Positions 21,321 through 54,401 of a DNA stretch of 54,401 nucleotides are shown piece after piece (the stretch's first letter is position 1; every line of letters starts with the position of its first letter). Made by a program: the position numbers and the translations under genes. Source of the DNA: Candidatus Iainarchaeum sp. (lineage in GTDB: Archaea > B1Sed10-29 > WALL01); assembly GCA_021162685.1 (NCBI GenBank), contig JAGGYF010000002.1, forward strand, positions 1-54,401. The letters run 5' to 3'. The notes beneath the pieces were generated by a model. It was given only the letters and a program-made list of their open reading frames with translations, searched no databases and had not been told where the DNA came from.

Positions 21321-21324
21321 ACCA

Positions 21325-23271: not shown

Positions 23272-23281
23272 GTACTGCCTC

Positions 23282-23518: not shown

Positions 23519-23558
23519 TACCTCACCATTAATATTTTTTGCATATGTATTTATAAGG

Positions 23559-23924: not shown

Positions 23925-23926
23925 GC

Positions 23927-24298: not shown

Positions 24299-24394
24299 AT
24301 TAAAAAAGAGGGCGCGTGAATATAAAAAGCTTAGCATCACGCGAAAATGAATCCAATGGATAAGTATATATACTAGTTCTTGCAGAATATTTTC

Positions 24395-29493: not shown

Positions 29494-29515
29494 TTACTCT
29501 CCATTCTTTTTCATT

Positions 29516-32053: not shown

Positions 32054-32458
32054 TCAGCATTCCATTGTCAAAACCATACTATAATCATCCAGTATCTTCA
32101 CACTCTCTGTTATTGTTTTGCATCCCTTCTTTTTTGCGATAACAGTTACTTCCTCCCCCTTTGGTATCTCAAACGTGGCTCTACTATTACTTGTCATCTT
32201 TGTTATGCTCTCTCCATTCCATTCTGCTGTTACTCTGATATCATCTGCACCTTTCACATTTACTATAAGTGTGAACCTCTGCACAGGCAGCATCATATAC
32301 ACTGCAAGAGCCAAGAGGATAACTAATATACCCAATGTAATGCTCTTCACAGGTACTCCCTTTTCTTCAAGCTCCTCTTTTTTATCCAATACCCAGTATA
32401 CAGGTATCCCTTTTTCATCTAGTGCATCCATCAGATCCCAGATATCCATATCACTCAC
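32054..32458 (-). CDS. Mini-paralogue of the giant surface proteins: leader, TM and one beta-sandwich domain
   Basis: LMDALDEKGIPVYWVLD...LEEKGVP, then TM, then a CarboxypepD_reg-like domain (ATFEIPKGEEVTVIAKKKGC). Confidence 0.82.
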   Translation of the reverse strand: MSDMDIWDLMDALDEKGIPVYWVLDKKEELEEKGVPVKSITLGILVILLALAVYMMLPVQRFTLIVNVKGADDIRVTAEWNGESITKMTSNSRATFEIPKGEEVTVIAKKKGCKTITESVKILDDYSMVLTMEC

Positions 32459-32664: not shown

Positions 32665-35600
32665 CTATGTTACTTGTCCTGCTCCTCCTGTTTGGATGAT
32701 CCATTTTCCACTGCTACATACATATTTCCCACATTGTTTGCCATTGTTATAACTATTACAATACGCCACTGCACCTTTTCCTTCTGTTCCGTATCCATAG
32801 TCAACACAGCACTTGGTTGGGTCTCCACTGACTAACTCCCCAACATTTGTACATGTCTCAGCAGGTAGAGGATAACAGCAATAAGGTTTGTCACCACTGC
32901 AATCACCCGCAACATCCTTTTCGCACTCGTCTTTGTATTTTACTATTATTCCATTTATTGTTGACACCTTTCCTTCCCAATCTGTTGTATCTATATCCCT
33001 ACATTCATGGTAAACAAATCCATCTGGTTGTAGTATAGCTTTCTTCTCTTCGGCGTATTCCTCACATGTTTGTTTCGTCCCACTTGTCCCTTGATACACC
33101 ACTTCATCAGAGAAATCACCACAACCTACATTGTTGCATGCCTTCACTTTATAGGTATACGTTTTTGCTGGATCACTGAATATATCAACTGACCTAGCAG
33201 TACCTGTTGATGCTACTTGGCCGAAGTTATTGTTCCCATCCTTATCTGGTTTTCTATACACTTTATAATCAAAAGCACAGTCCACAGGACCCCATGTTAA
33301 AACAACGCGTTCTTCTCCCTGCGAATCCTTCTCTACGGAGAAGCTTATGCTCCCTACCTTCTTTGGTACACTTTCACATTGCGACCCTCCTGATCCTCCT
33401 CTTTGCTGTCCTCCCTGTCCTTGCGGTTCGTACCTACACACAAACACATCCTTTTTGCTTGCTGTTTTTTTCGGTACTCTCTCTTCTAGGCTCTTCTGTT
33501 TTATCTGTCCTGGTCCATCTGTTAACCTTATATATGCCTCTTGTCCATCGTGTATATGATCTTTCCAATAGCGTACAAACCCTCTCTGTGGATTTGTTCT
33601 TGTTCCCTCCTTCGCTTGTATAATAGCACTATCATCGTATGAAGAATATCCAGCATCTACACCCCACATCCAGCAATCGCTACAGTACCCTGTACTTGGA
33701 TTATCATGCTTTGTCCTGTCAAATGCAACATACCAGTTATTTCTTGTGTACGCTCCTGTATCATAGAATCTAAATTTGTTCTCACCGGTTACTAACCAGT
33801 CCTTTGGTATATCAAATGATACCCATCTTGGCGTTCTATCGTAGCCAAATACTGTACACCAGTGGAATGTTATATTTTGATCTGGGTTATCATTCACGAC
33901 GAGATAATTCACATCCTCATAAGGTGCTCTTCCCTTATCTTCTATCTTTCCTTTATTTTTTATAACTTGATTTATGTCCTCAGTGGAATAATAGTCAATA
34001 CCGCTCACATTTAACTCACATACGCTATTGTCAGGGCAAATTCCTCCACTACTTTTACTTTTACAGCAACCTTTTGCATTAGCATAAGATTTACCCATCC
34101 ACTTCCAATGTTTCATATCCTTATAACAACGGAATCTTCCACTTATTACTGGCTCTCCCTGTACACATTTCCCATAAACCCAAAGCGCCGCACTGTCTCC
34201 TGTTATCTTATCCGTGTCTACATACAACCATTTGTTCAGTCCATCGTTTAAGTCATTTCCACCAAGCCATCTGGGGGTGGCAAGATCCTTCGGGTTATCA
34301 TTCATAAATATGTTCGCATACAGCGGAGAGCATTTAATTCCTTGTACACCACTGCCCATTAGAACAGCATGTGTGGCAGTATATGGTACTGCTCCGGTAA
34401 GTTCGAGTGTTTTCTCCTGGTTTGCATCAATCCATCCAGTTGAGACTGCATATAACATCTGGCCTTTGTTTGTTACGTTCTCGCAGCTTCCTTCTCCAGT
34501 ATAGAATGCAATTACTCCTCTTCCTCCACTGGCTCCACCATTCTTTATCTTTAAGCTTACATCCAGAAGTTCTGAATGGCCTTTTACAGAAGCCTGCTCT
34601 ATGTCAAGGTCAGCCATTGTTGTTGCATAGATCATCTTGTCATTTGGGTCACTCTTCATGCCATCATTGTCTATAACAGTAAGCTCTGCTTTAAATGTGC
34701 CTCTACTAGGAATGGTGTATTGCGTTTGTTCTGATTCGCTTTCTGTGGTTGTAACTTCTGTATCCAGGTCAATGTAGTCAATGAAGATCGTGTTGTTTGT
34801 TGTTATTCCAATGTGGTGTTCCCCGTCTGCAAGTGCAACAGGCAACTTACCAAATTCTATGGTTTGCCACTCGTTACTTTTTGTCACAGTCTTATTTGCA
34901 ACTTCTTGCCCATCAACATTCACTTTGAGTAATGTTGGTCCTGATAATTCTTTTACCTTCATTGACATAGATGGTTTGGGGTTGCCAGTAGTTATTATCT
35001 TATAAGTAACACCTATGGTTCCAATCATAGTAACTTCATCAAAGTATACACTTCCAGTTACTGGATTATGTGTGTCAGTTTGCTCACCCCAATCTGGAGA
35101 ACCTCCTTCTAAGGTATCATCAAAGATTATACTGCGGAACTTCAGTGGCCTTTCAACTATTCCATCTCCTCCCCAGTGTCCAGCATTTCCTCCACCTGGA
35201 TTTGTCCCATCAAGTGGGAACTCGACCCACTTCCAACCAGTCCAATCAATTTTTAGTGATGGCTGCCATATCTCTCCATTGGCATCTACATATCTAATCC
35301 TGAGCATGTTATCTTTATGATCTGCTTTAAACCAGAAACCAATTCTAGTTGCAGCATCAGGGATAGGTGTGCTCAATGTATCTACTATCTCAAGGAATTC
35401 ATTTGCTTTGTGGCTAAACTCATAATCTGTTTTGAACACGTATCTTCCTTGTATTGATCCTGATTGTACAGCATCAGAGCTAACAGTTGTGCTTGTACAT
35501 CCTGTGTTACCAGAATTACAATCTATCTCATATGTTCTCCAGCCATCGGTGTTACCATCCTCAAAGTCATCTATCAAAGCATTACTTGAAAGTCTTATTT

Positions 35601-38600
35601 TGAGTTTTCCGCTTGCTGCATTGTCTCCAATTATCTTCGCACTTCCTCTCACATCATACTCCTCTGCCTCAATTCTTGTTGTCTGTGATATATTCCATAT
35701 ATACTTTGTTATGGTTCCATCTGGGTCATAGCTATCTGAGGCATCCAATGTTACTGTTTGTCCTGCTTGTGTTACTAGGTCTAGGCCAGCATCTGCAACA
35801 GGCTTTACGCCAACTGTTTCAGTAGTTATGTTGAATACTTGTTCTTTGTTTTCGGAGATATCTGTACTGTTATTATATGTCCAGTATCTTACCAATTCTG
35901 AAGCCAACGCTTGTCTGTACACATTAAGCTCTTCTGGATGGACATTGTAATACCTATCAGTGTAAACCAATCCAATCTCTATATCCACGCCAATTGCACC
36001 AGGTCCTTTTTTTAGTGTGTAGTAACCGAATACTCCTTTACTCTTATCAATGGAATCCGTTATGTAGTTGTATTTATCTGCAACCAACTCCTCTATGTAG
36101 TAATCCCTGTATTTTATACCAAAGCCTCTCTCGTCATAGTTCTGTGACCCATCTGAAACAATATCTTCAGAATAGCCAAAGATATCCCTTGAATCCACAT
36201 TTATGAATCCTTTTACTTTGGCTGCATCTATTGCATTTATGAATGGTGTTATGTCATATCCTTCATCCTGTTTGAATGCATAGTAGTTCACGTAATCTCC
36301 AAGTTCTGCTCTCATGTCCTTGTCAAGGTTCATTGCACCTATGACAAATGAGTAATTGCCTTCATCGCACCATGAAAGACATCTATTTGTGGATGACACA
36401 CTTAGGACACGTTTATCTGTAGGCGATCTCCTCAGAACGTCTCTATCTGTAGATGGCTTTATTGGAAGAATTACTGGAGCACTTCCGTCTGCAAGTGATA
36501 TACTCCTGTCTGTAGATGGCTCTATTACAACATCTTCATTGTTTGGCTCAAATTTGACTGTTACAATACCACAACCAATGTCCGTTCCTCTTACCCATAG
36601 CTCTTTGTTGGCAGTGTTTTCAAACTCTCCTATTGGGTATATAGCGGAGAAGCCTGCGAATCCAAGTTCTTGTCTGATCTTTTCCATTGTTGTCGCTGTT
36701 ATCTTCTCGTTTCCTACTGCATATCTATACTCTGTGTTTGGACCTGCGTTCAGTGCATCCTTCAACACTGCCATTGTGAATTGCTCTGCGTCGCATACCC
36801 TTACAACACCGTCTTCAATAGAGCATGGTGCTTCTACTCCTCTATCTATGTCTTCAGGGGCATTTCTGTATCTGTATACCTCATATTCACCAGGCGTAGT
36901 GACTTTCTCAGCAGCACCTGGGCAATCCAGCTCAAAGAAGAATGCCCTTCTGAACTCTGGGCTTGTGAAGTCAAACCATAGTGATGGTTTATAGTATCCA
37001 GAGCATTTCTCCATATCTGGTGCTCCCTTTATTACAATTTCTGCGTATGGTGCAGAACTAACATCTGCTGGTTTTCCTGGGATCTCCCATTCTGTTGCTC
37101 CTTCCTCTATTGGAATCTCTCTCCCGAATTCATTGTATATTGCTTTAACATTGATGTCAATGCCATAGTTCCTTACAACCCAGGATGGCGAGAAGTACGG
37201 CTTTTCAAATGTTACTGGCTCTGGCCAGTAGTTGTAAACCTTTATTGTCTGATTCATTTGTGGGTGCTCTTCATTCCCGTAAGCTTCTGTGAAGTTCCAT
37301 GTAACTGGTTCTGTTATACCATCAAATAGTATGCCGCCCACACTGAAGTTCCTTGTAAATGGTCCAAACTCATATCCTATTGCCTTTACTGTTATTGTTC
37401 CTGGCTTCAATGCTCCTCCCTCTTTTGTCGGCAGCACAAACTCAAAGTATGGCTGTTCTGCAAAGTTCTTCAGCCACATCTCGCATGACTCATTGGTGCA
37501 TGTTGACACATATCCTGCTGGTATGTCATCAGAATCAAAGTTCAGTGCATCTCCTGAGATGTATACAACATTATTCCTTCCCTTCTCGTCATGCACTGCT
37601 CCGTACCCCATTACTTGACCAGTTGGATGGTCTGCATCCCTCTTTATAATGGACAATACCAGTACCTTAGTTGTTGTATCCAATGCCTCATTGCCTTCGC
37701 TGTCAAATCCTTGTAGTATCATATCATAGTCAACCCAGCCGTGCTTGAATGTTCCACCCTCCCATGTGGTTGTTGGTTCATCTTCTCCGTAGTCCCACAT
37801 GTATGCTTCCATTGTGCTTGTCTGCTTTGTAAAGTCACTATCTCCTGTAACAAATATGCCTTTTCCAACAGCTGCTACCCATTTCTTTCCATTGGCAGGT
37901 ATTGTCAGGGCATTCCAGCGCGCTCGGACCATTGTTGGTTCATCGTTTCTCGGAACAGCAGCCAGTGCTTCAGCAGCTTTCATTGGGTCATTTTCTACAA
38001 GTTCTCTAATGTTAGTGGCGTTTTTGAGTTTTCCAAAGTGCGGTCCACTTTCTGATGTATATCCAAGCATCTCAGCAGTTATTGGTGTGTATTCCTCTCC
38101 TGCGTATCCTGTTTCCTCCTCCTCTTGTGGAACAATTTCAAATGTTGCACTCTTACAGTTTGCATGGGAACCGACATCTTGAATAAATCTATTTGGTATC
38201 CTTGAAATAGAGCTTGTGTAGTTGAATAGAGCACATACCCATACTGTTTTTGTACCTGCGCCCAATTTATTTACTGAATAGTTTAATGTTCCGAAATCTG
38301 TTGTTCTTACAGCAGAGTCCTTATCAATCTTCGCCATACCCAGCCATTGTGGTGGTCCATAAGGAGCACCTTGTTCATCAAGCACTATTGAGTAAACAGA
38401 GACGTTCTGTTTTGTATACTTCTCTGTGTTGTAGTTCTTTATTACTGCCTCAATGCTTACGGTGTCGCCTATACCATATGTAAATGTATCTGTTTGCTCC
38501 CCTTTACTGTTTCTCAGTGTTATGCTGTCAACACCAATGTCTATTATATCAGAGATCCATTCGCAGTCTGGGTCCATTCTACATAGTCTCTCATCTGTTT

Positions 38601-41600
38601 GTGATTTACAGTCGCCCGCGATGTCTGGGAAACATGCCCTTGTTGTAGTAAATCCTGGAACAATTGCCCATTCACATCCTTCTACAGATTCGCATACCTG
38701 TTCGTTGGCATTTCCTCCAGAACAATCAGGTCCATTACAGTCGCCAGGACAGTTAAAGTGGTCTTCTCCTGCACTTGGTTCGCAGGTGCCATTGTAGTTA
38801 CATACACATTCCCCTAGGATCCTACTCTGGCCTGCTCCACATAGTGATTCATCAAATTCCATACATGGATTACTCAAACCAGTATGCCAGTTCTCTCCCA
38901 GGCTTGATAAACAAGAGTTATCTCCGAACCCACAATCCTTGTAACAGTTGTCTATTGTTTCTCCTGCTGAAGCATTACAGCAGTAGTCTCCACATGTACA
39001 ATCATATGTGTTCTGTATGCTTCCGTTCTCATCTCTGTACATACATCCAAACCATGACTCTCCTGCATCACATACTCCATCGCCATTACATGGAGAACAA
39101 TCCTGTGGGCATGTTGAATAGTTCTCTGGTGGGTTGCCATTTGGCTCACATAATCCATTTCCGCATGTACAATTGTCTGTAACATTTCCTGTTACCACTC
39201 CAGCAGTTTCATCTATGTATGTACATGCTGTATAGCTCTCTCCAGCCCACCACTCGCATGTACCGTTTTTATCACACGTTCCAGCACAATCCTGTGGACA
39301 CGATGTATAGTTCTCACCTATTGTCCCCTGACAGATGCCATTCCCACAACCACAATCTGATGGACAGGTTGTTGCATTTTCAGTTGCAGGGTCACATACT
39401 CCATCTCCACAATAGCAGTCTGTTGTGCCTGCTTCTGTTGCTAGGTCACATATCCCATCTCCAAGATGACAATCATTTGGACACCAGCGTTTATCTTCAC
39501 CAGGGTCGCAGACACCGTCATTATCGCATGGACAATCTGATGGACAGTTGTTCGCATCCTCATCTGCCCATCTGTCATTTGTTTCACAGATACCATTGTA
39601 GTTGCATGGTTGGACAAGTTCAGAACAATCGCTTACTGGGCAGTCCTGGCATGAACCCTCTGCTTTTTCAACTGCTTCTATGTTCAAAATAATACTCTTG
39701 CAATCCATGTCATTTGTTCCCTCTACGTTATCATCAATGATTGTCGCTCCGCTGAAATTTAGATGCCCATTGCTCCAGAGGTAATAGTTGGCACATACAG
39801 TTAACTCAACATATCCAATGTTTGTATTGTTCAAAACCAAGCCAACAACTGTGCTTTCGCCTGGATTTAATGGTGGTAGGTAATCCCATTCATCTGGGAA
39901 ACTGACCAAGGAGGTAGGTATTGCAGTTATCGTCACTATTGGTTCAAGTTCATTTTTTCCATCACTATCATAGTCAAGGATTGGCACAGTTTCTGTTCCA
40001 GCATTTCTCACGGTTGCGTTTACATATATTGTGTCACCTTCGTGAGGTGTCATAGGCGATACAGTAATCTGCGTAATTTGTATATTTGGCAATGCGACAA
40101 CATGCGCTATCTGGTAATCTGAATAGTTGAGAGACTGGTTCTTTTCCTCATCATTGAGAGACTGGTTCTTTTCCTCATCATACAATCTAACAGCAACCTC
40201 AATCCTGTATTCGCCTGTTTCTTCAGGTATCCAAGAGAATGCAAATCTGTGGTTTGCAATGGTGAAATCTCCCTTATAGTATGCATTTGCATTTATATCA
40301 TACATCTCACTTGTTTCATTATACTTCCATATCTGCATCTCATAATCATCTGGAGATGCATCATCGTCCAGCATAATGCTTCCAGATACAATGCCCTGCT
40401 TCTGAACTGTGAATGTGTTTGCAGAATCAATCTCAACAGGTAGTGTCAACTCATAGAATTTTGCCCATGGCTGCTCAACTGCATGCTCGTCAACTAGTGC
40501 AAAGTTTATCTGCTTATCAAAATCATTGTTGTTCTCAAACTCAACAACTGTCGCAAACCTTCTTCCCTTTATCTCTCCCTGCTCTGGCACTGTGATACTT
40601 GGTACAGTGTACTTTGTATGGTCAAAGTATCTTCCCTCTTCAAACATGTATGATGCAGTATAAACCCTTCCCAAAACATTTGATATTGGTGTCTGTTGCG
40701 ATTCTGGGATCTCCAGTACTGTGTACGGCAACACAAATCCAGACTGGTCATTAAACAATACCAGCCAGTCATTGTATTCTGGCCTCAATGTTGTTGTTGG
40801 TTCTCCCTCTTTGTAAACCTTCATCTTTACTGCTAGTTGTAATTCGTCATCTGCTTCAAGTTTATAGAAATTAGCAAGTTTTGGATTATCTGCTACAGGA
40901 TCTATCCTCGTAGTATCTGCTATGCTCTCTGGTTCTTCTATCTTTTGCACGCTTCCATCTGTTCTGACAATTGCACCAGAGTATGTAATTGGATACGAGT
41001 ATCCCTTTGATGATGTTATCTCAATTCCATATGAGCTGGCATCTCTCTTTGCCTTTGCCCTTATCTGTAGGTAGAATGTGCTTCCATCTGCAAATGTCCC
41101 ACCATCAACCACATGCTGTCCTGCTTTGTCTGTTGAGAGCCATGCACTATAAAGATAGAAGTCTGGATGCGTATCAATATAATGCCAGCCCTGTGTCTGT
41201 GTTGTATCAATTGTTATTGGTACGTGCACCCATGCATTATCCGGCTGTGTGGTGAATACTTTTCCATCGTTTGTTACCCATTTCGCTCTGTAATGCAATT
41301 CTGTATCTGGTGTAAGTACTGCAGTTCTCACGTGCAAGGGTATTGGTATATTGAAGATCACAGGTTTGTTATACTTTGTTATATCTATCTTGAAATACTT
41401 TGCAGCACTTATGCTTCCTGCCTCTTCATATGATAGAGGTGTTGAATAACTAAATTCTGTTGCCAAGAGGGGTCCAGAGACTGTTGGATCCTCTAAGCTA
41501 TAATCCTTTGGCCTCACACTCTTTATGATTATTGGGCTGGCTTCAATATCAGAGACTGAGCCCTGGTCACCAACCCAGAACTCTACCTCTGCGCTTCTAA

Positions 41601-43560: not shown

Positions 43561-43630
43561 CTACACACCTCATGCATAGAATTTGCATTGCTACAAATTT
43601 AGGGCGCTTTTATATATATACTTAATGGGT

Positions 43631-46600
43631 TTATTCCAATGTCATTTCTACCTCCATTTTGTCTAGATAATCTGCTTTCGGCCCGACCCACTCACCTTGA
43701 GTTGTCGATGACTCCTGGCATAAGATCTTCTTTATATTCCAATTCCCTGATTTCTCTTTACATTTGGTTTCTTGTGATTTCCAATTACTTACAGAATCCC
43801 ATATAGTGTATAACTCATCTGTAGACGGTGTGATCTTTATATAGAATTTATCCTCTTCTTCTAGCAATTCCTCTCCTCCTTTCCTGAGACAGACTTTCAT
43901 ATATTTTACTGTTAATGCTTCTCCAAATTCAATTGATCTCCATTGGTTACATGTTCCTTCGTTCACTACAGTAATATTGTGTCGCGAATAGCAACCAGAT
44001 TCTGTACTGCTTCCTCCATTTTCCCCTCCCCAAGCCTTTGTGATTGTGTACCATCTACAGTCATCACCAGATGACATAAATCCTTCAATTCCACAATGTT
44101 GCTGATCATTTAATGGACAACAGTCTTTTAATATGCTCGAAACACATATATCAGTAGTTTCCTTACTAGCACTGCAATCTCTCCACTTATTCTGATTATA
44201 CTTTGGTGCTCCGCATACATACATTTTCTTCTTGTCAATTGTCAGCGTCATAGTTGCTGTGTTCCCTACCTTGTCTTCAGCTGTTATTGTGTAGGTATGT
44301 TCCTGGTCGTCGTCTGCAGTGATTTCGATGATCCTTTTCCAACCTTTGTCGTTTCCAGAGAATATAGGCTGTTCATCAAGGTCATGTATTTTTTTTCTCT
44401 CTCCGTTCACTATGACTGCAGAGCCACCGGACACCCATCTTGGACCATCAACTTTAACACCTACAATCATTGTTTCTGAACACTCTTCTTTGTCATCGAA
44501 TTGCATCGGGGGAAGGAATGTGTGACTAGTCCCTAAGTTGTCCAATATCCCGGCGTAGACATCAATGCCCCATATAGTCTGTATGCTAAAGGTATTATCA
44601 GAATCTTCAACATAGTCTTGCTCTATTTTGTTCAAGCCGCCTTTGTATGCAATGTACCTGCCAGAGTCATCTGCGTGGTCCCAAGCATAGCAGCCTGCAT
44701 CACCATATCCTTGTGAGTAATCCATACTTTTCCCTTCCTGCTGGAACGCCAGTTCAAGTACAGGCGGAGTGGTATCTACAACTATATATATGATCCTAGG
44801 TGTTGTCTGTATATTTCCGTTCTCATCAATGGCAGAACAACTTATTTGAAGGTAGTTGAGGCCCTCTGCTACAAGGAACTCATTAGCTGATACCATGGTG
44901 TGGCACTCATATTCCTGTGCGTATGGGTTTCCTTCTATTGGCATGCAGTCTAGTGGTTCTGTGCTTACCTTCCCGTTTGCATCTGTATTTTGTGTGTTAA
45001 CTGCTTGTATTGTGCACCCACTTATTTTATTTGGTGATGTAACATATATTGGAATAACCACATCTGGTGAGTTTACATAGAATGGTCCTGATGTATCTGT
45101 ACACATCATACCTCCTGTTTCCTCTACTACGTGATGCGTTTCTTCAGGATTAAATGGTGCACACACACTTCCGTCTCCTAATATATCGCCTGTTCGTATT
45201 CCTTTGAACTCTCCTAGTATGTAGTTCCACTCTATCATGGGCTGGCCTTCTTCAAGCCTTACCACAGCAATTTTATCTGATGTACCAGTGTTTCCATTTG
45301 TATCTGTACAGTTCACTTTTATCATATTTGCTCCATCTATGTCACAATCATAGTTGTTGTAAACCTGTTTATTCGGCATGAGGTTTATACCAGAGCATTT
45401 AAATTCATATCTTATTGTTCCGTCAGGCATTGTATAGTTGTTTGTTTGGGTGCAAGTGTACTCATTTAAGTCAGTTGGGCAAACCCTGTACGCAGTACAT
45501 GATTCAACACCAAACCTATCTGTTGCATTAAACGAGATTGTTACAGTTGTTTCATTTGTTGCGCCAGGATATACAATGGAGAGGACTGTTGGAGGCGTTG
45601 CATCAAGCTTTATGGATTTTTCAGCTCTTGGACTCCAGATCCCACCTATGTTCTTGCATGTTGCTTTTATTTTGTATACGCCGTCATCACTACCGCCTAG
45701 GGTCCAGTTTGCGATCCTCAATGTGTTTCCTTCCCAGTCCGATGTTTCTTTGTTATATTCATTCACACGTTCAAAACTCCAATATGAACCTTCGTCTTCT
45801 GCATTCCATACCTTACACGCGATTGCGTCATCAGATGTTGTTATCCTTAGCTGAACATTTCTGTTCCCTGTGACATTTGCATCATATATGGGTGATTCCA
45901 ATAGGTTTCCGTCACGGTCATAGATTGCATCTATTACAAATGATTCTATTGTGGGTATTTCCCAGCCCTCTGCTTCTATGCATTCGCCCAGATCAAATAC
46001 CTGCTCCCCATTGCCTTTGATCTCAATATTATTTTCTTTTCCAGTCCAGAATGCAACAAGATTCGTTATAAAGCATCTTCTCTGGAAATCCAGGTTGTCT
46101 GCATTGGAATATACAATGCCTATCTGGAGCAGCCCATAATCTGCATTATATCTATAATACCCAGCAACGTTTGGCAATTGATTTGATACTGCCTTATCCC
46201 TGACCCATCTCAGTTTTTGGTCCGTTTCTTCCTTCATATCTTCTATAGTATATTCTCTATAATCTATCACAAATGGCGCGTATTGGTTATCGCTTATATC
46301 ACTGTCCTTTGCACCGCCAACAAAGTTATCCCAAGGCATAAACCCACTGACTTCTGTTTTCAGTGATGACAACGGCTCATTTGTTAGGGAACTGGAGAAT
46401 GAGAAGTACTTCACGATATCCATTGTAGAGGGTTCCCCTTTGAGGTCGTCATCATAGTTCATCAGTCCAAGTATGTACGGGCCGTACTGTGGGTTGCACC
46501 ATGGTACGTTCCTGTCAATCTCTGGCTCCAAAACAATGACATCGTTCTGCCTCTTTTCCAGCTTTAATTTTACTAATCCACATGTTATATCTTTTGTGAG

Positions 46601-49600
46601 TACTACGTTGTTTTGCCCAGCTTCCTCTTCTGTTGAAACCACACTAATGCTCTCTTCACTTCCCTCACCAAGCACCTTTGCTGTTACAATGTCATTGCCA
46701 AATGCGTAGTATCTCACATCCTCAATTCTATGTGATTGCTGCAGGTCTGAAACAGCAAGCCCTATGGCTTCTGAGAGCTGCTCTGCGTCACATAGGTAAA
46801 CAGTATCATCGGAAACAGCACATGAGTCCATTGTTGTTTTGTAATCCCTCTTATCCTCTCTGAATACATTAAATGCAGTGCCTAGGTCTGGTTTTTCTGG
46901 CTCAGGGCCAAGCGCAAATGAACAATTAAATATCATCTCATATTCTGCGCTCCTCTCTATGTGTGATTCCCTTGTATCTGTTGTCACAACTAATCTGTTT
47001 TTACTTTCATATAGGTTGCATTCTACTCCTGGGGGTATTGCAGTTATTGAGAGTATTGCCTTTCCTCTTGGAGGTATTTTTACAGAAATCTTCCCATCTT
47101 TATCCTTCTCCTTGCTTGTTATTTCAAAACCATTTGCATCATACACAACAACCTTTCTGCTCAATCCAAATTCTTCGTAATACTCCCACGTGCCAGTCTC
47201 TAGTTCTAATGATAACTCTTCCTCCCAGTTGTTTGTCACTGTTGCATAGTCAAATGTTATATTCTGCCTTTTGTCATCAAGTACAAATTTCATAGAATAT
47301 GGCAATGGCTCAAAGTGCGTTCCGTGTATCTCATAGCTCCTTTCAAGTGTTCCAATAGATTTGCTTTGTGCTCTTACCTTCAAGTATCCCCAATCCAATA
47401 CCAAGGGTTGGGACTGCGCTTCTGTTGTGAAGTATGTGCCTTCTACTCCTTCATACAGAGGAGCATATATTGTTTGACCTGGTGCCTCAAGAACAACAAC
47501 ATTTTTTATGCCATCTGTTTCTATCCTGCTAGTTATTGGTACACCTACACTACTGCTCAGTGTTTTCTCTAAGATGTCTATTCTTACGTCCTTCACCTCA
47601 GTGTTCAGTGTTTGTTCGGATAGTGCATTTCCTTCGTCATCTATTGGTGTGATCCTGAACACAAAATCAGCAGCACCAACATTGATTGTCTTGAACGGCT
47701 GTTGCATTGGCAATCCTTTCTTCCATAAATATATAACCACAGATGATGTATGCAGGTCTTTTCCTTTACCTGTTATCTCAATTACTTTTTTCTTTCCAGC
47801 ACCTATTGTCACTTCAGATGGGTATTCCAACTCCTCAATACCAGGTGCCTGAACAAACAATGATGCCTCTTGGTCTATCTCCCCCTTATTCTTCAGTGTG
47901 ATCTCTATCTTCATATCTCTTGCGCCTTTTGTCAGGCTCATGACAGGAAGCATCTCACTTTCATTGAATACTGCCCATGAACAACCCTCTGTATAAGGTG
48001 CATAATGGCATAGGTAAACCATTGGCTTAACCCTGGCAACAACATTTGGTATGCTTGTTTGTTCCTCTATTGGTGCTTCTTCTATATGGAATTTTAGTGT
48101 GTTTTTTAGATCATTGAATATGCTTATCTCAGCAAGGGATGTTGGTTCTCTTGCTTTTAGTGTTATTACTAAATGAACAATATCATCTGTGTCAACCTTA
48201 TACAGTTCTGGTGCCTCTGTTCCAGGTCTTATACTTACTGGCAACTCATTTGTATACTCTGTTTCGTAGATATTCGTTCTGTTCCCATTAATCCTCTCAA
48301 TCCATCCTGAATAATACATAGGCACAACATATTTCTGCCCAGTTACTGGTGGGAATGAATCAATTGCAAATGCATAGTTTTGGCTTTCATGCGATGCAAT
48401 TGCTTTTATGTGCAGGAAGATTGCAGAACCCTGTGTTAACGTAACCTCATTTGTTCCAGACTCAGCATTTGGGTCCTCTGAGAAGTATGCCTTGTATGCG
48501 TTGAAATCCTGAGTTTCAATAATATTCCAATCAGCATCACCATCTACTATATCTATTGTTGTCTCTTTCCACCCACTATCTATCTGTGTTCCATCCTCTT
48601 CTTCCCATACTGCTCTGTAGTGTACTGTTGTGTTCCCTTTCGCAAGTTTCCTAGCAAACATCGGGATTGTTATGGTATAACTGCCAGCATCATAATCGCT
48701 GATTACAAACTTAACGTATTTTGATGTTGTATCTATACTTCCTCTTGTTGGATATGAATCATAACTATATGAGTCAAATGCATATGGCTTTACAATGGGC
48801 TTTGGCTGCAAGCTGAATATGTAAGGGTCTATCCCTCCAATGACAACAGGCGTTCTTAAAGGATTCTCCTTCGTTCCAGGGTCCCCAACCCATAGCTCAA
48901 CAGTTATTGTTTTGTATGGCTCTCTCTTCTTTGGGTCAGCATATGGCAATCCAATATCAAGCTTTGTTTCATACATCTTCTCCTTTACAAATTCTAGTTT
49001 TGGATTTTGTGGCACAGTAAATCCAATTTCATGCTTTACTTCTCTTAGGTTAATTTCCGTTTCAATGTTATTTGTGACATCAAACACGTTTGTGTATGTT
49101 GGTCCATACGTCTTTCCTTCCTCGTCTGTATACTTTGCTTTTAGGAATACCTTTTGTCCTCTGTACGCGTTGAAAACAACTTTCCTATTATCTCCGCTTC
49201 TCTGATTATCTATCTCCTCAATGTCACCATATGTTGTTTCGTATAGCCAAACCCTTACATCCTTTTTTGGTATGCCCTCAACCTTTGTAAGTACTTCTAT
49301 GGTTACTTCAAGTGGTACAATCTTTAGGACCTGTCTTACTGGGGTACCTGGCTCAACATCAAATGTTTCAAATTCGTCATAATCTGCTTTCCCAGGTGCT
49401 AATGCTCTGAAGTAGTATGTTCCAGCAAGAACCTTTTTGAATTGACACAAACCAGTTGCAGGCGTCACGCATTCCCTGTATACTATGTCATCTAGTGTCA
49501 TCAATTGCACTCTAACACCCTGCATGCCCTCCTCAATACCTTTTGCATTTACTGCCTTAACCTCAACAGTTGCAGAATTGCTCTCATCAATCTTCTGCAT

Positions 49601-51259
49601 CTTTATCTCAGTATCAATCCCTCCTACAATTCTCTCTTGTGTGGGTATGTAATCATCATGCACAAGTTGTAATGTGTATTCAGCATCCTTTTGTAATACA
49701 AGTGTTACTTTTCCAGCAGATGTTGTTCCAGAATCCACAACTATGCCGTCTTCTATGGCAATTACTCTCACTCTGCTAATACCTATATTCGTAGAATTAT
49801 CCTTCACAACGATTGTGGTTGGGAAGCCTTCCTGCATGACCAGGTTTATGTCCTGTTGTGATAGTTGTGTCCTAAGTGGGCCAGTGGCATCTCTAAATCT
49901 TCCCAATGGGTCTTCTGCTCTTATATAATACCTCTGCCCCTCTGGAATATCTAGATACGCCTTTCCGTCTTCATCTGTTGTTGCCGGTTCAATCCCTTCT
50001 ATAGCTTTTCCCTGGGAGTCTACAACAGTTACAAGTATGCCCTCTAATGGATTCCCTTGACCGTCCTTTATTGTGACATATGTTGTATACGTCTTTGTTT
50101 CAATGGGTGGCTGAGGAGGGCAATTTGGCACATCTTGGGGACATGTATCGCACGTTTCTCCTATCTCCTGTATGTTATTTCCACAAACTGGTTGCTGCGA
50201 ACACTTAACATCCTGTGGGCAATTATCGCATGTCTCTCCTAGTTCAGCAATGCCATTCCCACAAACACCTGTTGTATTGCAACTGCTTCCAACATCCTCT
50301 GGGCAATTATCACAGTTCTCTCCAGGTTCAACTTCACCATTCCCACAAACAGCATTTTCTGGCAATCTCATATCCCTGCCGCAGACATCTGCATCCTTGC
50401 TATCTGGTACACCGTCTCCATCTATATCATCATCTTCAATATCTGGTATACCGTCATTATCATTGTCCATATCTTCTGAGTCCGGTACGCCGTCATTATC
50501 ACAGTCCATCATCCCTATATCTGATGTTTTCCTTGCAGGCAATGTTATTTGTCCTGTTCTATCAAGTTCCTCTTTAAGCTCTGAAACAGTCTCTGTTTTC
50601 CCATATCCTACGCATTGTATATCAATATCATAATCATCCAATAAGCAGGTATTCTCATCCAAAAATAATGTGTTCCCATCTATGCCCCATGTTATATCTA
50701 CTGCTTTTCCATCCTTATCAAATGCTCTTATCACACATCCCTCAAGTGTTCCATAGTCCTCTGCAACAAGTATCGCAGTGTAATACTCCTGCGCTATTGT
50801 GCTACATGCTTTTACTCCTAGTAAGCCTTCACATTCCATCTCTACTTCTACTTCTGTTCCTGCATCAATTGTTTTTCTCAATGTTTTGCATCCAGCATAC
50901 TTCACGACAAGGTCAATGCTTCCGAACCCCTCAAATGTTACTTTGCCTTCTTCATCTGTTTTTAATTCAAGTTCACTTCCATCTGGTAGTTTGGCAATAA
51001 CATCAGCATCAACGAGTGTGGTGTTCCCAAATTTCACAAGAACTACTGTTTCTGCGGGCTGCGGCTTTGCTCCTGTAATAGACATAGCAATGACCAAAAG
51101 CAATATGATAAAAATACCAACAACGAGTGGGAAGCTTGGCAACCCCAACCCTTCTATAGCATCTACTACCTTGTAAACAGGAATGCCCTTTGCATCAAGA
51201 GCATCAAGCACTCCGTAATACTTATCTTCTATTGCTTTATATGTTCCTTTTAGGTTCAT
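43631..51259 (-). CDS. Giant membrane-anchored surface protein, ~2542 aa, paralogue of 32665..43560
   Basis: GGTGA RBS before ATG 51259; same leader (VLDALDAKGIPVYKVVD); Asp-rich DxDxDG repeats; three CGNG...CPxDV repeats; shared scaffold motifs; Ig-like C-terminal domains. Confidence 0.88.
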   Translation of the reverse strand: MNLKGTYKAIEDKYYGVLDALDAKGIPVYKVVDAIEGLGLPSFPLVVGIFIILLLVIAMSITGAKPQPAETVVLVKFGNTTLVDADVIAKLPDGSELELKTDEEGKVTFEGFGSIDLVVKYAGCKTLRKTIDAGTEVEVEMECEGLLGVKACSTIAQEYYTAILVAEDYGTLEGCVIRAFDKDGKAVDITWGIDGNTLFLDENTCLLDDYDIDIQCVGYGKTETVSELKEELDRTGQITLPARKTSDIGMMDCDNDGVPDSEDMDNDNDGIPDIEDDDIDGDGVPDSKDADVCGRDMRLPENAVCGNGEVEPGENCDNCPEDVGSSCNTTGVCGNGIAELGETCDNCPQDVKCSQQPVCGNNIQEIGETCDTCPQDVPNCPPQPPIETKTYTTYVTIKDGQGNPLEGILVTVVDSQGKAIEGIEPATTDEDGKAYLDIPEGQRYYIRAEDPLGRFRDATGPLRTQLSQQDINLVMQEGFPTTIVVKDNSTNIGISRVRVIAIEDGIVVDSGTTSAGKVTLVLQKDAEYTLQLVHDDYIPTQERIVGGIDTEIKMQKIDESNSATVEVKAVNAKGIEEGMQGVRVQLMTLDDIVYRECVTPATGLCQFKKVLAGTYYFRALAPGKADYDEFETFDVEPGTPVRQVLKIVPLEVTIEVLTKVEGIPKKDVRVWLYETTYGDIEEIDNQRSGDNRKVVFNAYRGQKVFLKAKYTDEEGKTYGPTYTNVFDVTNNIETEINLREVKHEIGFTVPQNPKLEFVKEKMYETKLDIGLPYADPKKREPYKTITVELWVGDPGTKENPLRTPVVIGGIDPYIFSLQPKPIVKPYAFDSYSYDSYPTRGSIDTTSKYVKFVISDYDAGSYTITIPMFARKLAKGNTTVHYRAVWEEEDGTQIDSGWKETTIDIVDGDADWNIIETQDFNAYKAYFSEDPNAESGTNEVTLTQGSAIFLHIKAIASHESQNYAFAIDSFPPVTGQKYVVPMYYSGWIERINGNRTNIYETEYTNELPVSIRPGTEAPELYKVDTDDIVHLVITLKAREPTSLAEISIFNDLKNTLKFHIEEAPIEEQTSIPNVVARVKPMVYLCHYAPYTEGCSWAVFNESEMLPVMSLTKGARDMKIEITLKNKGEIDQEASLFVQAPGIEELEYPSEVTIGAGKKKVIEITGKGKDLHTSSVVIYLWKKGLPMQQPFKTINVGAADFVFRITPIDDEGNALSEQTLNTEVKDVRIDILEKTLSSSVGVPITSRIETDGIKNVVVLEAPGQTIYAPLYEGVEGTYFTTEAQSQPLVLDWGYLKVRAQSKSIGTLERSYEIHGTHFEPLPYSMKFVLDDKRQNITFDYATVTNNWEEELSLELETGTWEYYEEFGLSRKVVVYDANGFEITSKEKDKDGKISVKIPPRGKAILSITAIPPGVECNLYESKNRLVVTTDTRESHIERSAEYEMIFNCSFALGPEPEKPDLGTAFNVFREDKRDYKTTMDSCAVSDDTVYLCDAEQLSEAIGLAVSDLQQSHRIEDVRYYAFGNDIVTAKVLGEGSEESISVVSTEEEAGQNNVVLTKDITCGLVKLKLEKRQNDVIVLEPEIDRNVPWCNPQYGPYILGLMNYDDDLKGEPSTMDIVKYFSFSSSLTNEPLSSLKTEVSGFMPWDNFVGGAKDSDISDNQYAPFVIDYREYTIEDMKEETDQKLRWVRDKAVSNQLPNVAGYYRYNADYGLLQIGIVYSNADNLDFQRRCFITNLVAFWTGKENNIEIKGNGEQVFDLGECIEAEGWEIPTIESFVIDAIYDRDGNLLESPIYDANVTGNRNVQLRITTSDDAIACKVWNAEDEGSYWSFERVNEYNKETSDWEGNTLRIANWTLGGSDDGVYKIKATCKNIGGIWSPRAEKSIKLDATPPTVLSIVYPGATNETTVTISFNATDRFGVESCTAYRVCPTDLNEYTCTQTNNYTMPDGTIRYEFKCSGINLMPNKQVYNNYDCDIDGANMIKVNCTDTNGNTGTSDKIAVVRLEEGQPMIEWNYILGEFKGIRTGDILGDGSVCAPFNPEETHHVVEETGGMMCTDTSGPFYVNSPDVVIPIYVTSPNKISGCTIQAVNTQNTDANGKVSTEPLDCMPIEGNPYAQEYECHTMVSANEFLVAEGLNYLQISCSAIDENGNIQTTPRIIYIVVDTTPPVLELAFQQEGKSMDYSQGYGDAGCYAWDHADDSGRYIAYKGGLNKIEQDYVEDSDNTFSIQTIWGIDVYAGILDNLGTSHTFLPPMQFDDKEECSETMIVGVKVDGPRWVSGGSAVIVNGERKKIHDLDEQPIFSGNDKGWKRIIEITADDDQEHTYTITAEDKVGNTATMTLTIDKKKMYVCGAPKYNQNKWRDCSASKETTDICVSSILKDCCPLNDQQHCGIEGFMSSGDDCRWYTITKAWGGENGGSSTESGCYSRHNITVVNEGTCNQWRSIEFGEALTVKYMKVCLRKGGEELLEEEDKFYIKITPSTDELYTIWDSVSNWKSQETKCKEKSGNWNIKKILCQESSTTQGEWVGPKADYLDKMEVEMTLE

Positions 51260-51264
51260 GGATT

Positions 51265-54200
51265 TCACCTTTGTAATTCAATCTTTGTTATAACTACTTG
51301 GCAAGCAAAATCATCACATGCTGCAAAACAAGGTTCTAATACGCTACCTCCTGGTAGATAGTCAGATAGCCTAGATTCAGCAGCCTTCGCCCTGATGATG
51401 TACAACCCACCGCCTTTTAGTTCTGAGTGACATACCTCAAGTTCAAAAGGATCTGGAATAGCAAGTTCTGCAATACTCGTTACAGTCCCAGCAATAGGTA
51501 CTGCCTCTAATGCTCCAGTAGCAAGGTTTGCAAAGAATCTAGGATCTGATTGTCTGCACTGCGAGGCGTCTTGGACTCTCCATCCTACTCTCAACGCTTG
51601 AGGTGCAATCTTGACCAAACAAAATTTTAAGAAGAATTTCAAGTTTTCCAAGTTTCTTAAATTCCTGAGATTTTTAACAAAGGTTTTTCCCATCGTCTTC
51701 AAAAATTGCGACATCCTTGCCCCTTTACCAGCAGCCTGCGCACTCTTGAATGCGGTTTGCACTGTGCCGATTGTGAGCACATCCAATACGCCAGAACACA
51801 CTGCCTGACTTGCACATTCTGGGTTCCTAACAATCTTGTTCTCGTTTCTGTCCTGCCACTCCTGGTATTTTGAAATAATCCTATCCCAATTTACATCTCC
51901 AGTACCATCATAGTAGACAATTATGGTCACGCCATCTTCATCTAATTGATTATTACCTGCTTCATCCCTTACCTCCACAGAGCCGGGGATACCTTCATCA
52001 GCAAATCCTAGTTCTTCTATTTGCTCTTGGGAGTATCTATGTCTTACAATATTACATGCTCTTATGATCTCATCGGCAATGTTATCTGTGGTGAATTGGG
52101 GCATGTATCCATTAAGGGATTGATGTGCATTATCCTGCGTAAGATTTACATTGTTTACATCGTCTTTGCACTCTATCTCTATTTGCTTGTCTTTGGTCCA
52201 ATCAATTATTGCTATAGGTAGTGTTGGTTTTTCCATACCCTCAATTAACGTAGGAACACATGTTACATCTGCATATCTTGGGTTTTCACTACCAGTTGTC
52301 GTATCCAGCTTGCTTTGTACAGTACAGTCATATTCTGCGTCTGTAAAGTCTTGAAGTGCTATTCTTACCTTACAATTCTTTGTGCCTATCGGCGTGTACA
52401 GATCCTTTAGTGTAAAGAACATATTTGGGTCTTCCCTTCTTCTATTCTCATATTTAATAAATTCAAGGTATTTTTCCATGTTAAAGTTTTCTATGATGGG
52501 TCCTTCCTCATCCCATGTTGCTCTGAAACTCCTTGTGGCAGGCTGGCCTTGCTTGTCCTGGCATGTCACAGTTATGTTATTTACTGCATTCACTTGCAGA
52601 GGTAGTGGGCATGTGTATTCTATTTTTGTTGGGTCGCCTGTTGACAGCTCTCTTGGTGTGCATTCCCATTTTGGTGGTATTTTTGGGTTCGTTACATCAC
52701 TTCCATTCAGATTATTCCAGTGTTCATCATCATCCAAAAGTTCTCCAGTGTAATCCTTGTGCTTCCACCACTGAACAGATGCAGTGCAGGATTGCATGCC
52801 GTCCTCATCGCTTGCTACAAATATTAGGTTGAATAGTGATGTGTCTTCATCCAATTTCTTAACAGCACTGAATACAAAGTCCTTTCCGTTCTCGCTGAAT
52901 CTTACTGGATTTGCTTTCCCTTCCTCATCCCCTACTGTGTATAACTCACTCTGGTCTCCACACTTGGGGTCAAACCAGAACCTTGTTTGTTCTGCATCTG
53001 TTGTTGGGAATCCATTTGTGCTGAATATAAAGCTGTTCGGCAGTTCAAAATCCGGAAGTTCAGCACTCCATCTGTACACCTTTGTTGTGCCCATTGGTTT
53101 CTCAGTTCCAAACTCGTCCCTGCATTTAAGTTCAAGCTCAATATACTTGTTTGTTTCGCTGATATACGGACTGATGCAGGATATGTCTGCATTCCAGAAG
53201 TATAGGCCTCTTCCTTTGTCAGTTATGTAGCAGCACCCAGCATAGTTTTCATAGTTTTCTGTTGGTTCTGTATCTCCACATTCTGGTGCAGGTGGCAATG
53301 TTCCAGTCATTTGTTTTGGATAAAGCCAGCATTCGGAGAGCTTTGCATATCTTGACCTTGCTTTTATGAAGCCAGATTTTGGTATCCTCACATACGGCTC
53401 TCTTGTGTCTACAATATCAGGTAATGTCCTACCTATAAGTTCAATCCCGCTTGTATCCAATGTTATGGTATCCCTTGTTTTGTGTGATGGGATGCCTTCT
53501 TCAGATATACAGTACGCACCAACGAACTTCAGTCCAGAGCCCTCTGTTAGTGTGAATTCCTGGCCAAATATACCATATGCGTCTTCCTGGCTGGAATACT
53601 CCACAGGATACTTCTTCTGGCCTGTTTCCTCTCCATCTGGCTCTATGTTATATACTATACAGTATGATGCATTATTCTCAACCTTGATATTTACGTTTAC
53701 ATTCTGTGTTCCTGTTATGTCATAACTTAATACTTCCTGAGATTCATCTGTTTCACTCTGTTTGAATGAATACACGTAAAATTCAGATATCTCAGGCCCT
53801 TGTAGATTCACAACTTCGTCTGCATCAGCATCATCTATTGGTGAATAAATCATCTGATAATTCGGTGTGGATACGACCCATCCTTTGAGTGTGCCAGTTG
53901 TTACGAATTGCACAACTCTGGTGACAAATAGCGACCTGTACTGTTTCAGTTGTTCAACAGGAACATCATTCCTGTTGTAAACCAAGCCAAGGTAAACATC
54001 ATTCTTGTCGTCAATGGTGAAATATCCAATTACTGGCCTCCCAGCATTTTTGAACGAATTCATCGCAAATATGGGGCAGTATTCTCCTTCCCTCATCTCA
54101 CAGTCCCTATATTTTATGAACGCTTGGGCTTCTGTACCTGCTCTTGCGTTTACAATAGATCCTGCTGATAACCCTTTTGATTCATAACCAAACAATAAGC

Positions 54201-54401
54201 TTTCGTCCAGTACATTTCTCTGCGCGCTTAGTTGTATTGCCTCAACAAATGCCTGCGGATTGTAGCCTGATGTAAGATCAAAACTATAATACCTTCCGAA
54301 ATCAGGCCTCAATCCTTTGTCATAATTCAGCAATCCAATGAAATACGCAAACGAATCCTTGGAGCACCATGTCACCTTGTCCTGCAACACATTCTCTAAT
54401 G
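51265..54401 (-). CDS. Third giant paralogue, 5' end outside the window (>1041 aa)
   Basis: Frame is open to the window edge; WCSKDSFAYFIGLLNYDKGL matches WCNPQYGPYILGLMNYDDDL and WCDEGNYSFVIGAMNLDKDM of the other two giants. Confidence 0.85.
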   Translation of the reverse strand, partial: LENVLQDKVTWCSKDSFAYFIGLLNYDKGLRPDFGRYYSFDLTSGYNPQAFVEAIQLSAQRNVLDESLLFGYESKGLSAGSIVNARAGTEAQAFIKYRDCEMREGEYCPIFAMNSFKNAGRPVIGYFTIDDKNDVYLGLVYNRNDVPVEQLKQYRSLFVTRVVQFVTTGTLKGWVVSTPNYQMIYSPIDDADADEVVNLQGPEISEFYVYSFKQSETDESQEVLSYDITGTQNVNVNIKVENNASYCIVYNIEPDGEETGQKKYPVEYSSQEDAYGIFGQEFTLTEGSGLKFVGAYCISEEGIPSHKTRDTITLDTSGIELIGRTLPDIVDTREPYVRIPKSGFIKARSRYAKLSECWLYPKQMTGTLPPAPECGDTEPTENYENYAGCCYITDKGRGLYFWNADISCISPYISETNKYIELELKCRDEFGTEKPMGTTKVYRWSAELPDFELPNSFIFSTNGFPTTDAEQTRFWFDPKCGDQSELYTVGDEEGKANPVRFSENGKDFVFSAVKKLDEDTSLFNLIFVASDEDGMQSCTASVQWWKHKDYTGELLDDDEHWNNLNGSDVTNPKIPPKWECTPRELSTGDPTKIEYTCPLPLQVNAVNNITVTCQDKQGQPATRSFRATWDEEGPIIENFNMEKYLEFIKYENRRREDPNMFFTLKDLYTPIGTKNCKVRIALQDFTDAEYDCTVQSKLDTTTGSENPRYADVTCVPTLIEGMEKPTLPIAIIDWTKDKQIEIECKDDVNNVNLTQDNAHQSLNGYMPQFTTDNIADEIIRACNIVRHRYSQEQIEELGFADEGIPGSVEVRDEAGNNQLDEDGVTIIVYYDGTGDVNWDRIISKYQEWQDRNENKIVRNPECASQAVCSGVLDVLTIGTVQTAFKSAQAAGKGARMSQFLKTMGKTFVKNLRNLRNLENLKFFLKFCLVKIAPQALRVGWRVQDASQCRQSDPRFFANLATGALEAVPIAGTVTSIAELAIPDPFELEVCHSELKGGGLYIIRAKAAESRLSDYLPGGSVLEPCFAACDDFACQVVITKIELQR

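Follow-up and report, generated by a model that had tools for sequence, protein, structure and literature searches.

Tandem giant paralogues of three of four old types, two of them with C-terminal ends that turn over within a genus, in a Candidatus Iainarchaeum genome

The stretch of DNA studied here (the window, 54,401 nucleotides) is the entire contig C25 (GenBank JAGGYF010000002.1) of a Candidatus Iainarchaeum sp. genome (assembly GCA_021162685.1; 1.11 Mb in 45 contigs, 98.4% complete), and its right-hand 21.7 kb contain three co-directional minus-strand open reading frames (ORFs) coding for giant proteins. We find that the three ORFs are true paralogues, that they represent three of four types which are old and have been retained in a fixed order, and that the C-terminal ends of two of these types (A and B) turn over while the remainder of the protein is kept. 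The explanation that we favour, with moderate confidence, is that the giants are membrane-anchored adhesin fibres with distal binding modules that are replaced at domain boundaries.

The three giant ORFs are paralogues

32665..43560, minus strand: P0001, type A giant of 3631 amino acids (aa), the final giant gene of the array (ORF and translation)
43631..51268, minus strand: P0002, type B giant of 2545 aa from a GTG at 51268, or 2542 aa from an ATG at 51259
51265..54401, minus strand: P0003, C-terminal part of a type C giant (ORF 51265-54399, 1044 aa, open at its 5′ end)

The P0003 gene is truncated by the contig end; its full-length type C orthologues have 2556-2881 aa. The intergenic gaps among the three genes amount to 5 and 70 bases. 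In BLASTP comparisons, P0001 and P0002 share 30% identity over 841 aa (E 5e-87), with separate alignments of their N-termini (31% over the first 239 aa, E 4e-32) and of a region that includes a block of the form WC...IG.MN.D (23% over 726 aa, E 7e-18). The truncated P0003 aligns with P0001 in this WC block and the part that follows it only (E 2e-13), and with P0002 in the WC block and then in an Ig-like segment (NVTGNRNVQL/DITGTQNVNV; E 3e-7), past which the similarity between P0002 and P0003 is not significant. An earlier note on this DNA had proposed three tandem giant paralogues on the strength of shared motifs. Every motif that it quoted is present in the translations, and the alignments confirm the paralogy.

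Four types in a fixed order

Patterns of best hits and a tree both separate the family into four clades. The tree was built from the first 1000 aa of 19 sequences by a quick IQ-TREE search, with SH-aLRT values as the only support measure. P0001 and three orthologues form clade A (support 100). Clade C contains seven sequences (100), among them two copies from this genome that are each other's sisters (100), and clade B unites P0002 with its orthologues in two relatives, G002 and G005 (98), to which it is 33-35% identical over ~2170 aa. Three further sequences make up clade D (98), a type not seen in this genome, and two genes of a third relative, G008, pair with each other (83) and share an unresolved fork with clade B and with the clade of A plus C. 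The genes are arranged as C, B, (extra), A in G002, G005, G008 and in the genome studied here. Tree and gene order together indicate that types A-D are old, retained paralogues in a fixed order and not the product of a recent burst.

A tblastn search of the genome revealed at least four giant-family genes, the additional pieces lying on contigs C39 and C40. An N-terminal piece of 913 aa is found at the end of C39, whereas C40 carries a C-terminal piece of 1072 aa (37% identical to P0003), an AAA_14 ATPase gene and a second N-terminal piece of 913 aa. Exact overlaps of 127 bases connect the ends of C39 and C40, the end of C25 (reverse strand) with the start of C40, and the end of C4 with the start of C39; such overlaps are the signature of a k-mer graph forking inside repeats. 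Protein identity between the two N-terminal pieces is 61%, while their DNA identity is a mosaic: it reaches 92% over bases 1-150, 95% at 1651-1800 and 99-100% over the final 160 bases, and is 46-80% in the remaining parts. This is the pattern that would be expected from gene conversion between neighbouring copies, and near-identical tracts of this kind account for metagenome assemblies breaking at such loci. From the k-mer overlaps and synteny, the simplest contig order would be C4, C39, gap, C40, gap, C25, which results in four giant genes: two of type C, of which P0003 is the second, followed by type B (P0002) and type A (P0001). In that order a pilin-like gene (described below) comes first and the ATPase gene of C40 falls between the two type C genes, and each of the two gaps would measure ~1.6 kb judging from the orthologues. 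With lengths estimated from orthologues, the four giants together would comprise ~11,000 residues, or ~3% of the genome.

Distal ends of types A and B turn over while type C keeps its tail

32668..34290, minus strand: orphan tip of P0001 (aa 3091-3631), with a weak fn3 match and a Cys-rich end
43634..44746, minus strand: orphan tip of P0002 (aa 2175-2545), in which homology to orthologues ends just past a VDTxPP boundary
51268..52092, minus strand: conserved type C tail (P0003 aa 770-1044), defined by alignments, with invariant C93, C221, C259 and C264 in alignment A4

Among orthologues of types A and B, the stalk and the WC domain (both described below) are 30-50% identical, and P0001 and P0002 retain 22-52% identity per alignment window in the WC domain and along most of the stalk when compared with their orthologues. 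Identity drops to 0.06-0.16, with 19-63% of orthologue positions filled, in lineage-specific inserts and at the distal ends; the regions affected are residues 1201-1800, 2701-2900 and 3101-3631 of P0001 (2901-3100 stays at 0.18) and residues 301-400 and 2101-2545 of P0002. The loss of homology is abrupt even between G002 and G005, which belong to one genus. Their type B proteins are 50% identical over ~2,100 aa and do not align in the last 370-400, and their type A proteins are 46.5% identical over ~2,200 aa and do not align in the last 600 versus 230 residues. The break in type B falls just past the VDTxPP motif, which also closes earlier Ig-like modules.

Neither the P0001 tip nor the P0002 tip has a match in any of the 12 other genomes of the order. 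In a collection of 5.8 billion proteins, searched by a method that relies on shared words and is restricted by length, the P0001 tip matched only itself among proteins of 1997-6355 aa, and the P0002 tip gave one weak match covering 9% of the query among proteins of comparable length. Compared with PDB sequences, the C-terminal regions of P0001, P0002 and P0003 returned nothing at E ≤0.1.

The situation is different for type C, whose members are colinear among orthologues up to the last residues. The type C tail comprises a small domain and a terminal cap that ends in C..C.D(F/Y).C.V, with a basic low-complexity linker of widely differing length between them. It has no Pfam or PDB match, and the ESM Atlas returned sub-threshold matches only (≤0.77).

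The constant stalk with variable ends that the earlier note had proposed therefore holds for types A and B, where the comparison of orthologous loci shows that the ends differ between relatives and that stalk and WC domain are kept. The unrelated tip that it ascribed to P0003 does not stand, since this tail is conserved among orthologues; the picture is one of ends that turn over in two types, with the type C tail kept, and the paralogues are ancient types and not freely swapping cassettes. That the ends might set host range is a conjecture of the note. Sequencing reads, to which the note had also pointed, come from four runs of one study of hydrothermal vent metagenomes and represent one population at ~4-6x in short contigs. 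No hypervariable tip was detected in them: in the parts that they cover, they contain scattered single changes and no clustered tip variants, and they are too shallow and uniform to test strain variation. One cluster of read variants, at 54205-54274, fits a paralogous copy.

Leader, membrane helix and predicted topology

43369..43560, minus strand: leader and single membrane helix of P0001 (aa 1-64; alignment A3 and hydrophobicity scan)

The giants open with a conserved leader of 35-45 residues, which has invariant G-I-P, D, E, G and P columns in alignment A3 and ends in G-I/L-P immediately ahead of a hydrophobic helix. The same module opens P0002 (~51060-51259) and a mini-paralogue of 134 aa encoded downstream of P0001. 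Every sequence with an N-terminus has a single strongly hydrophobic segment at about residues 28-87 (aa 28-64 in P0001). One N-terminal segment was found in 14 of the 18 sequences scanned, and the four others are two C-terminal pieces and the database proteins P0009 and P0013, which begin past the leader. The hydrophobicity scan detected no C-terminal segment in P0001, P0002, P0003 or the C40 copy, and among the relatives scanned P0010 alone has a second, weak segment close to its C-terminus. In composition the giants are acidic, and cysteine makes up 2.4-2.9% of the full-length proteins and C-terminal pieces (0.9% of the N-terminal pieces) against a genome median of 1.0%. Taken together, these features suggest that the giants are N-in, C-out signal-anchored extracellular fibres with a leader that is probably cytoplasmic.

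Class III signals have a short basic leader, a [K/R]-G cleavage site and a hydrophobic N-terminal helix. The giants do not fit this pattern, or that of type IV pilins, in view of the length and conservation of the leader, the variable residue preceding the Gly (A, K, R, L or M) and the Pro at +2. Substrates of exosortases and archaeosortases (PGF-CTERM and similar) carry a C-terminal motif, a membrane helix and a basic cluster; P0001, P0002, P0003 and the C40 copy cannot be counted among them, having no C-terminal helix.

Stalk, inserts and distal modules

35212..35808, minus strand: PKD and CBM_11-like modules of P0001 (aa 2585-2783; PKD_4 at aa 2585-2625, E 2.6e-7)
38461..39693, minus strand: Cys-rich, lineage-specific insert of P0001 (about aa 1290-1700; 9-16 Cys per 100 aa)

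CarboxypepD_reg (PF13620) scores 61.2 bits in P0001 and 46.7 bits in P0002 (Pfam cut-off 32.3), and SpaA (PF17802) 24.4 and 29.6 bits, respectively (cut-off 23.1), with the CarboxypepD_reg and SpaA-type prealbumin domains placed within the first 650 residues. Going by these above-cut-off matches, P0001 and P0002 qualify as predicted members of the prealbumin/CarboxypepD_reg-type beta-sandwich repeat proteins. The N-terminal pieces on C39 and C40 match the stalk domain families too, and P0003, a C-terminal piece, matches none of them. SdrD_B and Big_1 matches stay below the Pfam cut-offs. Most of the length of the giant proteins is without a Pfam or NCBIfam family, the NCBIfam matches being far below threshold.

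Past the WC domain, P0001 was said to continue with PKD, CBM and FN3 modules. PKD_4 and a CBM_11-like domain are confirmed, the latter at 28.1 bits just above its cut-off of 27, and Pfam adds a CARDB match; the fn3 match is weak (E 7e-3). The tips of P0002 and P0003 have no significant Pfam match. Neither does the Cys-rich insert of P0001, in which 19-38% of orthologue positions are filled at an identity of 0.07-0.10. Short direct DNA repeats are present at 39339-39567 (P0001) and at 50129-50351 (P0002, three units ~80 bases apart), and both encode cysteine repeats of the type CGNG..E.GE.CD.CP.D.

The WC domain

35821..36918, minus strand: WC domain of P0001 (aa 2215-2580; alignments A1 and A2)
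45974..46921, minus strand: WC domain of P0002 (aa 1450-1765; alignments A1 and A2)
53830..54399, minus strand: second half of the WC domain of P0003 (aa 1-190; BLASTP and alignment)

A profile of the WC block (~320 residues) retrieved 44 representatives out of 1.84 billion, nearly all of them ~2,000-2,900 aa long and with the domain at a similar position. In an alignment of 29 sequences, the invariant columns are four Cys, a D after the second, a G after the third and one N (C34, C44, D45, C114, G115, C142 and N155 in P0002 numbering), and Q, W and D columns are nearly invariant. P0001 and P0002 possess the leader, single helix and stalk as well as a WC domain with all of the invariant C, CD, CG, WC and N.D columns. 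No Pfam family matches the domain in more than one of the 29 members, the best PDB match to the profile has an E of 2.1, and the ESM Atlas gave no usable match for the P0002 domain. Two shorter relatives have the WC domain fused to a peptidase of family C25, which marks it as a module in its own right. Its conserved cysteines are consistent with a disulfide-bonded domain that would be part of the extracellular region.

Distribution and neighbouring genes

The WC profile matches 11 of the 13 species genomes of the order, none of the 18 genomes from the rest of the phylum and none of 30 other archaea; completeness is 85% and 61% in the two genomes of the order without a match. Matches to the leader profile are more widespread (11/13, 14/18 and 1/30, respectively; 26 of 61 overall). 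Usually there is one giant gene per genome by this profile, and one distant complete genome has five matches, four of them consecutive. Related loci identified through the leader are in records titled Candidatus Iainarchaeum and Diapherotrites, and additionally in two titled Candidatus Micrarchaeota and one titled an Actinomycetota bacterium.

32054..32458, minus strand: mini-paralogue with leader, helix and one stalk domain (134 aa; 35% identity to the P0001 N-terminus; match to profile A3)
20703..24448, minus strand: nine tightly packed small membrane-protein genes (95-205 aa; ORFs abutting or overlapping)

In all five relatives' contigs, the giants form tandem arrays of 2-4 genes directly after a pilin-like gene of 689-747 aa. 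The homologue of the latter in this genome is split between C4 and C39 (from L003:5902 onward, product ~750 aa), and its predicted start, MQKKG/FAVFTPMVG, fits the class III signal pattern. Upstream on C4 are genes for a T2SSE ATPase and a T2SSF platform protein and a divergent 174-aa Exosortase_EpsH-like gene. Adjoining this last gene (C4, L003, 159-1382) are a ParE-type toxin gene and its small upstream partner.

In five of five distant genomes, a giant gene has an orthologue of the array-linked ATPase (757-768 aa, identity 55-59%) at a distance of 1.4-12.3 kb, and the ATPase is also present in two of the five regions fetched from close relatives. The genome studied here encodes seven T2SSE-type ATPases; the array-linked one exceeds the other six in length, and none of these is more than 34% identical to it. 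The genome also has two A24 prepilin peptidase genes. Prediction of a complex between leader residues 1-38 (A3) and the ATPase (A5) gave a score of 0.00, a value that weighs neither way on binding. The ATPase orthologue at G051:C1:650006-652255 contains one in-frame TGA.

Downstream of P0001 there is an ORF of 66 aa and then the mini-paralogue, homologues of which (131 and 137 aa) directly follow the type A gene in G002 and G005, that is, in two of five relatives. Homologues of the small membrane-protein genes, of a 487-aa protein, of a PolB and of an M24 peptidase are each located downstream of the arrays in 3-5 of the five windows. For the small membrane-protein genes at 23927-24448, 21325-21903 and 20703-21320, the counts are 4, 4 and 5 of the five relatives. 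The genes at 21904-22263, 22260-22649 and 22649-22984 look like paralogues with the motif P..IP..M.IR.KP.W..KNW in common, and the 205-aa protein of 20703-21320 ends in a helix and basic residues resembling a sorting signal.

In G002 and G005, the mini-paralogue and the small membrane-protein genes are ~1 kb or less apart, whereas an insert at ~24.4-32 kb separates them in this genome. The insert (~24400-32000) harbours two nucleotidyltransferase genes (one paired with HEPN), a DUF6036 gene, helix-turn-helix regulators, an 8-oxoguanine glycosylase and AAA_14 ATPases. At 25292-26631 (minus strand), one AAA_14/DUF4143 ATPase extends over two overlapping ORFs and looks frameshifted, its 155-aa part corresponding to profile positions 3-97 and its 299-aa part to 98-129 plus DUF4143.

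Elsewhere in the window, 14630-18178 (minus strand) encodes a family B DNA polymerase with an intein that carries a LAGLIDADG domain (Pfam); the PolB proteins of relatives (763-782 aa) align to residues ~3-554 and 949-1181 only, the insert of ~400 residues being absent there. Another large protein (1076 aa), encoded at 876-4106 (minus strand), has fn3 and a Cys-rich metal-binding motif of the MopE type and is unrelated to the giant family by tblastn. Finally, a 106-base Rfam tRNA match at 729-834 (minus strand) was not called by ARAGORN and is possibly an intron-containing tRNA.

Discussion

If the giants are adhesin fibres, as we favour, each would be anchored by a single N-terminal membrane helix that follows the conserved and probably cytoplasmic leader, and its remaining 2,400-3,500 residues would be outside the cell as a beta-sandwich stalk of CarboxypepD_reg/prealbumin/Ig-like domains, a WC domain and distal modules. 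By our estimate, a fibre of some 25 domains would be ~100 nm long if each domain contributed ~4 nm. The family diverged early into types A, B, C and D, which were kept in a fixed order in an operon-like array whose neighbours are the genes for a dedicated pilus-type ATPase, for a platform protein, for a large pilin-like protein and for an exosortase-like protein. The far ends of the fibres may bind other cells, polymers or surfaces, and the replacement of type A and B ends at Ig-domain boundaries, on the time scale of a genus, would change what is bound, while type C would retain its conserved tail. Whereas paralogy, domain architecture, synteny, distribution and tip turnover are observed directly, the extracellular topology, the extended shape, adhesion and a change of specificity through turnover are predicted from sequence.

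Several points weigh against this explanation. The tips are without a recognisable binding fold, except for the PKD and CBM_11-like modules of type A, and orphan tips could reflect fast divergence instead of replacement; in the four runs of one study the sequence across the tips is near-identical. The putative beta-sandwich stalk rests on Pfam matches that span a minority of the length. The tree is without bootstrap and includes three rows of deviant composition, two of them long-branched, and the gene order over both assembly gaps comes from k-mer overlaps and synteny and not from sequence that spans them. Finally, Diapherotrites-type archaea have been argued to be comparatively self-sufficient (PMC8561730), so that a host may not exist.

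A structural role would explain much of the same evidence. The giants might form a canopy, an S-layer-like coat or a spacer whose variable ends are unconstrained, and such an envelope would be consistent with a membrane anchor followed by a very long extracellular part, with a distribution that takes in nearly every genome of the order and, in the form of one gene, most of the class, with the retention of several types in a fixed order and with tips that mostly have no recognisable ligand-binding fold. However, relaxed constraint alone would not be expected to produce an abrupt loss of homology at domain boundaries or tips of quite different length; type A carries PKD and CBM_11-like modules, the linked genes for a pilus-type motor and a pilin-like protein point to an appendage or adhesion locus instead, and we regard this alternative as unlikely. 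Alternatively, the giants could be cargo of the adjacent pilus-type machine, the leader being a divergent class III signal and the ATPase, platform protein and prepilin peptidase serving to process, extract or assemble them. This alternative, which overlaps with the adhesin-fibre reading, draws on the linkage of the ATPase orthologue to giants in all five distant genomes and in two of five close relatives' windows, on the G-I/L-P right ahead of the helix, on the two A24 peptidase genes and on the textbook KKG/FAVFTPMVG start of the adjoining 750-aa protein; nevertheless, the long conserved leader, the variable pre-Gly residue and the Pro at +2 are atypical against the class III pattern, and we think it quite unlikely.

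The earlier note had also described the layout as adhesin- or toxin-like. Polymorphic toxin systems such as CdiA and Rhs combine a conserved bulk with sharply bounded, replaceable C-terminal ends, and a conserved N-terminal bulk, abruptly replaced ends, orphan tips and tandem paralogues would all be in keeping with a contact-dependent effector in which the stalk delivers variable C-terminal toxins. Yet neither the whole proteins nor tip slices match a toxin family in Pfam or NCBIfam, the gaps of 5 and 70 bases leave no space for an immunity gene, and the 12 other genomes of the order hold no orphan tip cassettes. Moreover, the tips are Cys-rich with Ig/PKD/CBM-type pieces and the paralogues are ancient orthologous types. 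The likeness to CdiA and Rhs, a sharp boundary between body and end in types A and B and not in type C, is thus one of evolutionary pattern only, and we consider a toxin function very improbable. Variable C-terminal ends on surface proteins would also be compatible with targets of a diversity-generating retroelement or a similar programmed hypermutation, and such elements have reportedly been found in DPANN archaea. In this 98.4% complete genome there is no RVT_1 match, while control genomes respond; no template/variable repeat pair is present in 32000-54401 and the four low-depth runs of one study show no clustered tip variants, which leaves hypermutation with next to no probability.

To return to adhesin fibres, giant bacterial Ig-repeat adhesins (SiiE, LapA-type RTX adhesins, the SdrD/SpaA type) project ligand-binding modules on a beta-sandwich stalk. 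The giants resemble them in having a long stalk with distal modules and SpaA and CarboxypepD_reg matches above the cut-offs, and differ in being archaeal, in having a signal-anchor at the N-terminus where the bacterial proteins use cell-wall sorting or type I secretion, in showing no RTX or LPXTG features and in that most of their length has no family match. A second precedent is provided by the SPEARE proteins of Nanohaloarchaeota, which have 3,315-8,553 aa, are mostly extracellular with one membrane helix (Hamm et al. 2019, PMC6642349), occur in several copies per genome (4% of one genome), possess variable extracellular adhesion domains, have a proposed role in host contact and are accompanied by expression of pilus-type genes (PMC6642349). 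SPEARE proteins are defined by a conserved intracellular restriction-endonuclease-like part, a serine protease, laminin-G and a mostly C-terminal anchor (PMC6642349). The giants are likewise very long, multi-copy DPANN proteins with one membrane helix; in contrast, Pfam and hydrophobicity searches found no restriction-endonuclease-like part, serine protease, laminin-G or C-terminal anchor in them, their cytoplasmic part would be the leader only, and they conserve leader, stalk and WC domain in an ordered array of four ancient types.

Giant adhesin-like surface proteins of DPANN archaea linked to pilus genes are an already known kind. No paper on this particular family was found in the open-access literature, judged by titles and the start of abstracts. 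What we regard as new are the four ancient types and their fixed order, breakpoint-like tip turnover between species of one genus, tips that are orphans, mosaic tracts as left by conversion, the WC module with its fusion to a peptidase, the counts of its distribution and that of the leader, and the class-wide link to one dedicated ATPase. A bolder extension, which we rate as quite unlikely, is that the whole array makes up one cell-contact organelle of giants, ATPase, platform protein, pilin-like and exosortase-like proteins and the nine small membrane proteins. In such an organelle, types A and B would choose the partner by swappable tips, type C would bring a membrane-active end (a basic amphipathic linker and a four-cysteine cap) to the partner's envelope, and the leader would couple the fibres to the motor.

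We know of no cultured member of the Iainarchaeum/Diapherotrites-type lineages, and how DPANN archaea recognise and attach to partners or surfaces is largely obscure; the locus described here is a concrete and conserved candidate for such an apparatus. It separates into parts that are invariant (leader, stalk, WC domain and type C tail) and parts that turn over at the level of species (the tips of types A and B). Both the leader and the WC domain are unannotated modules that deserve definition as families, and the variable tips may serve as natural probes for a ligand or partner.

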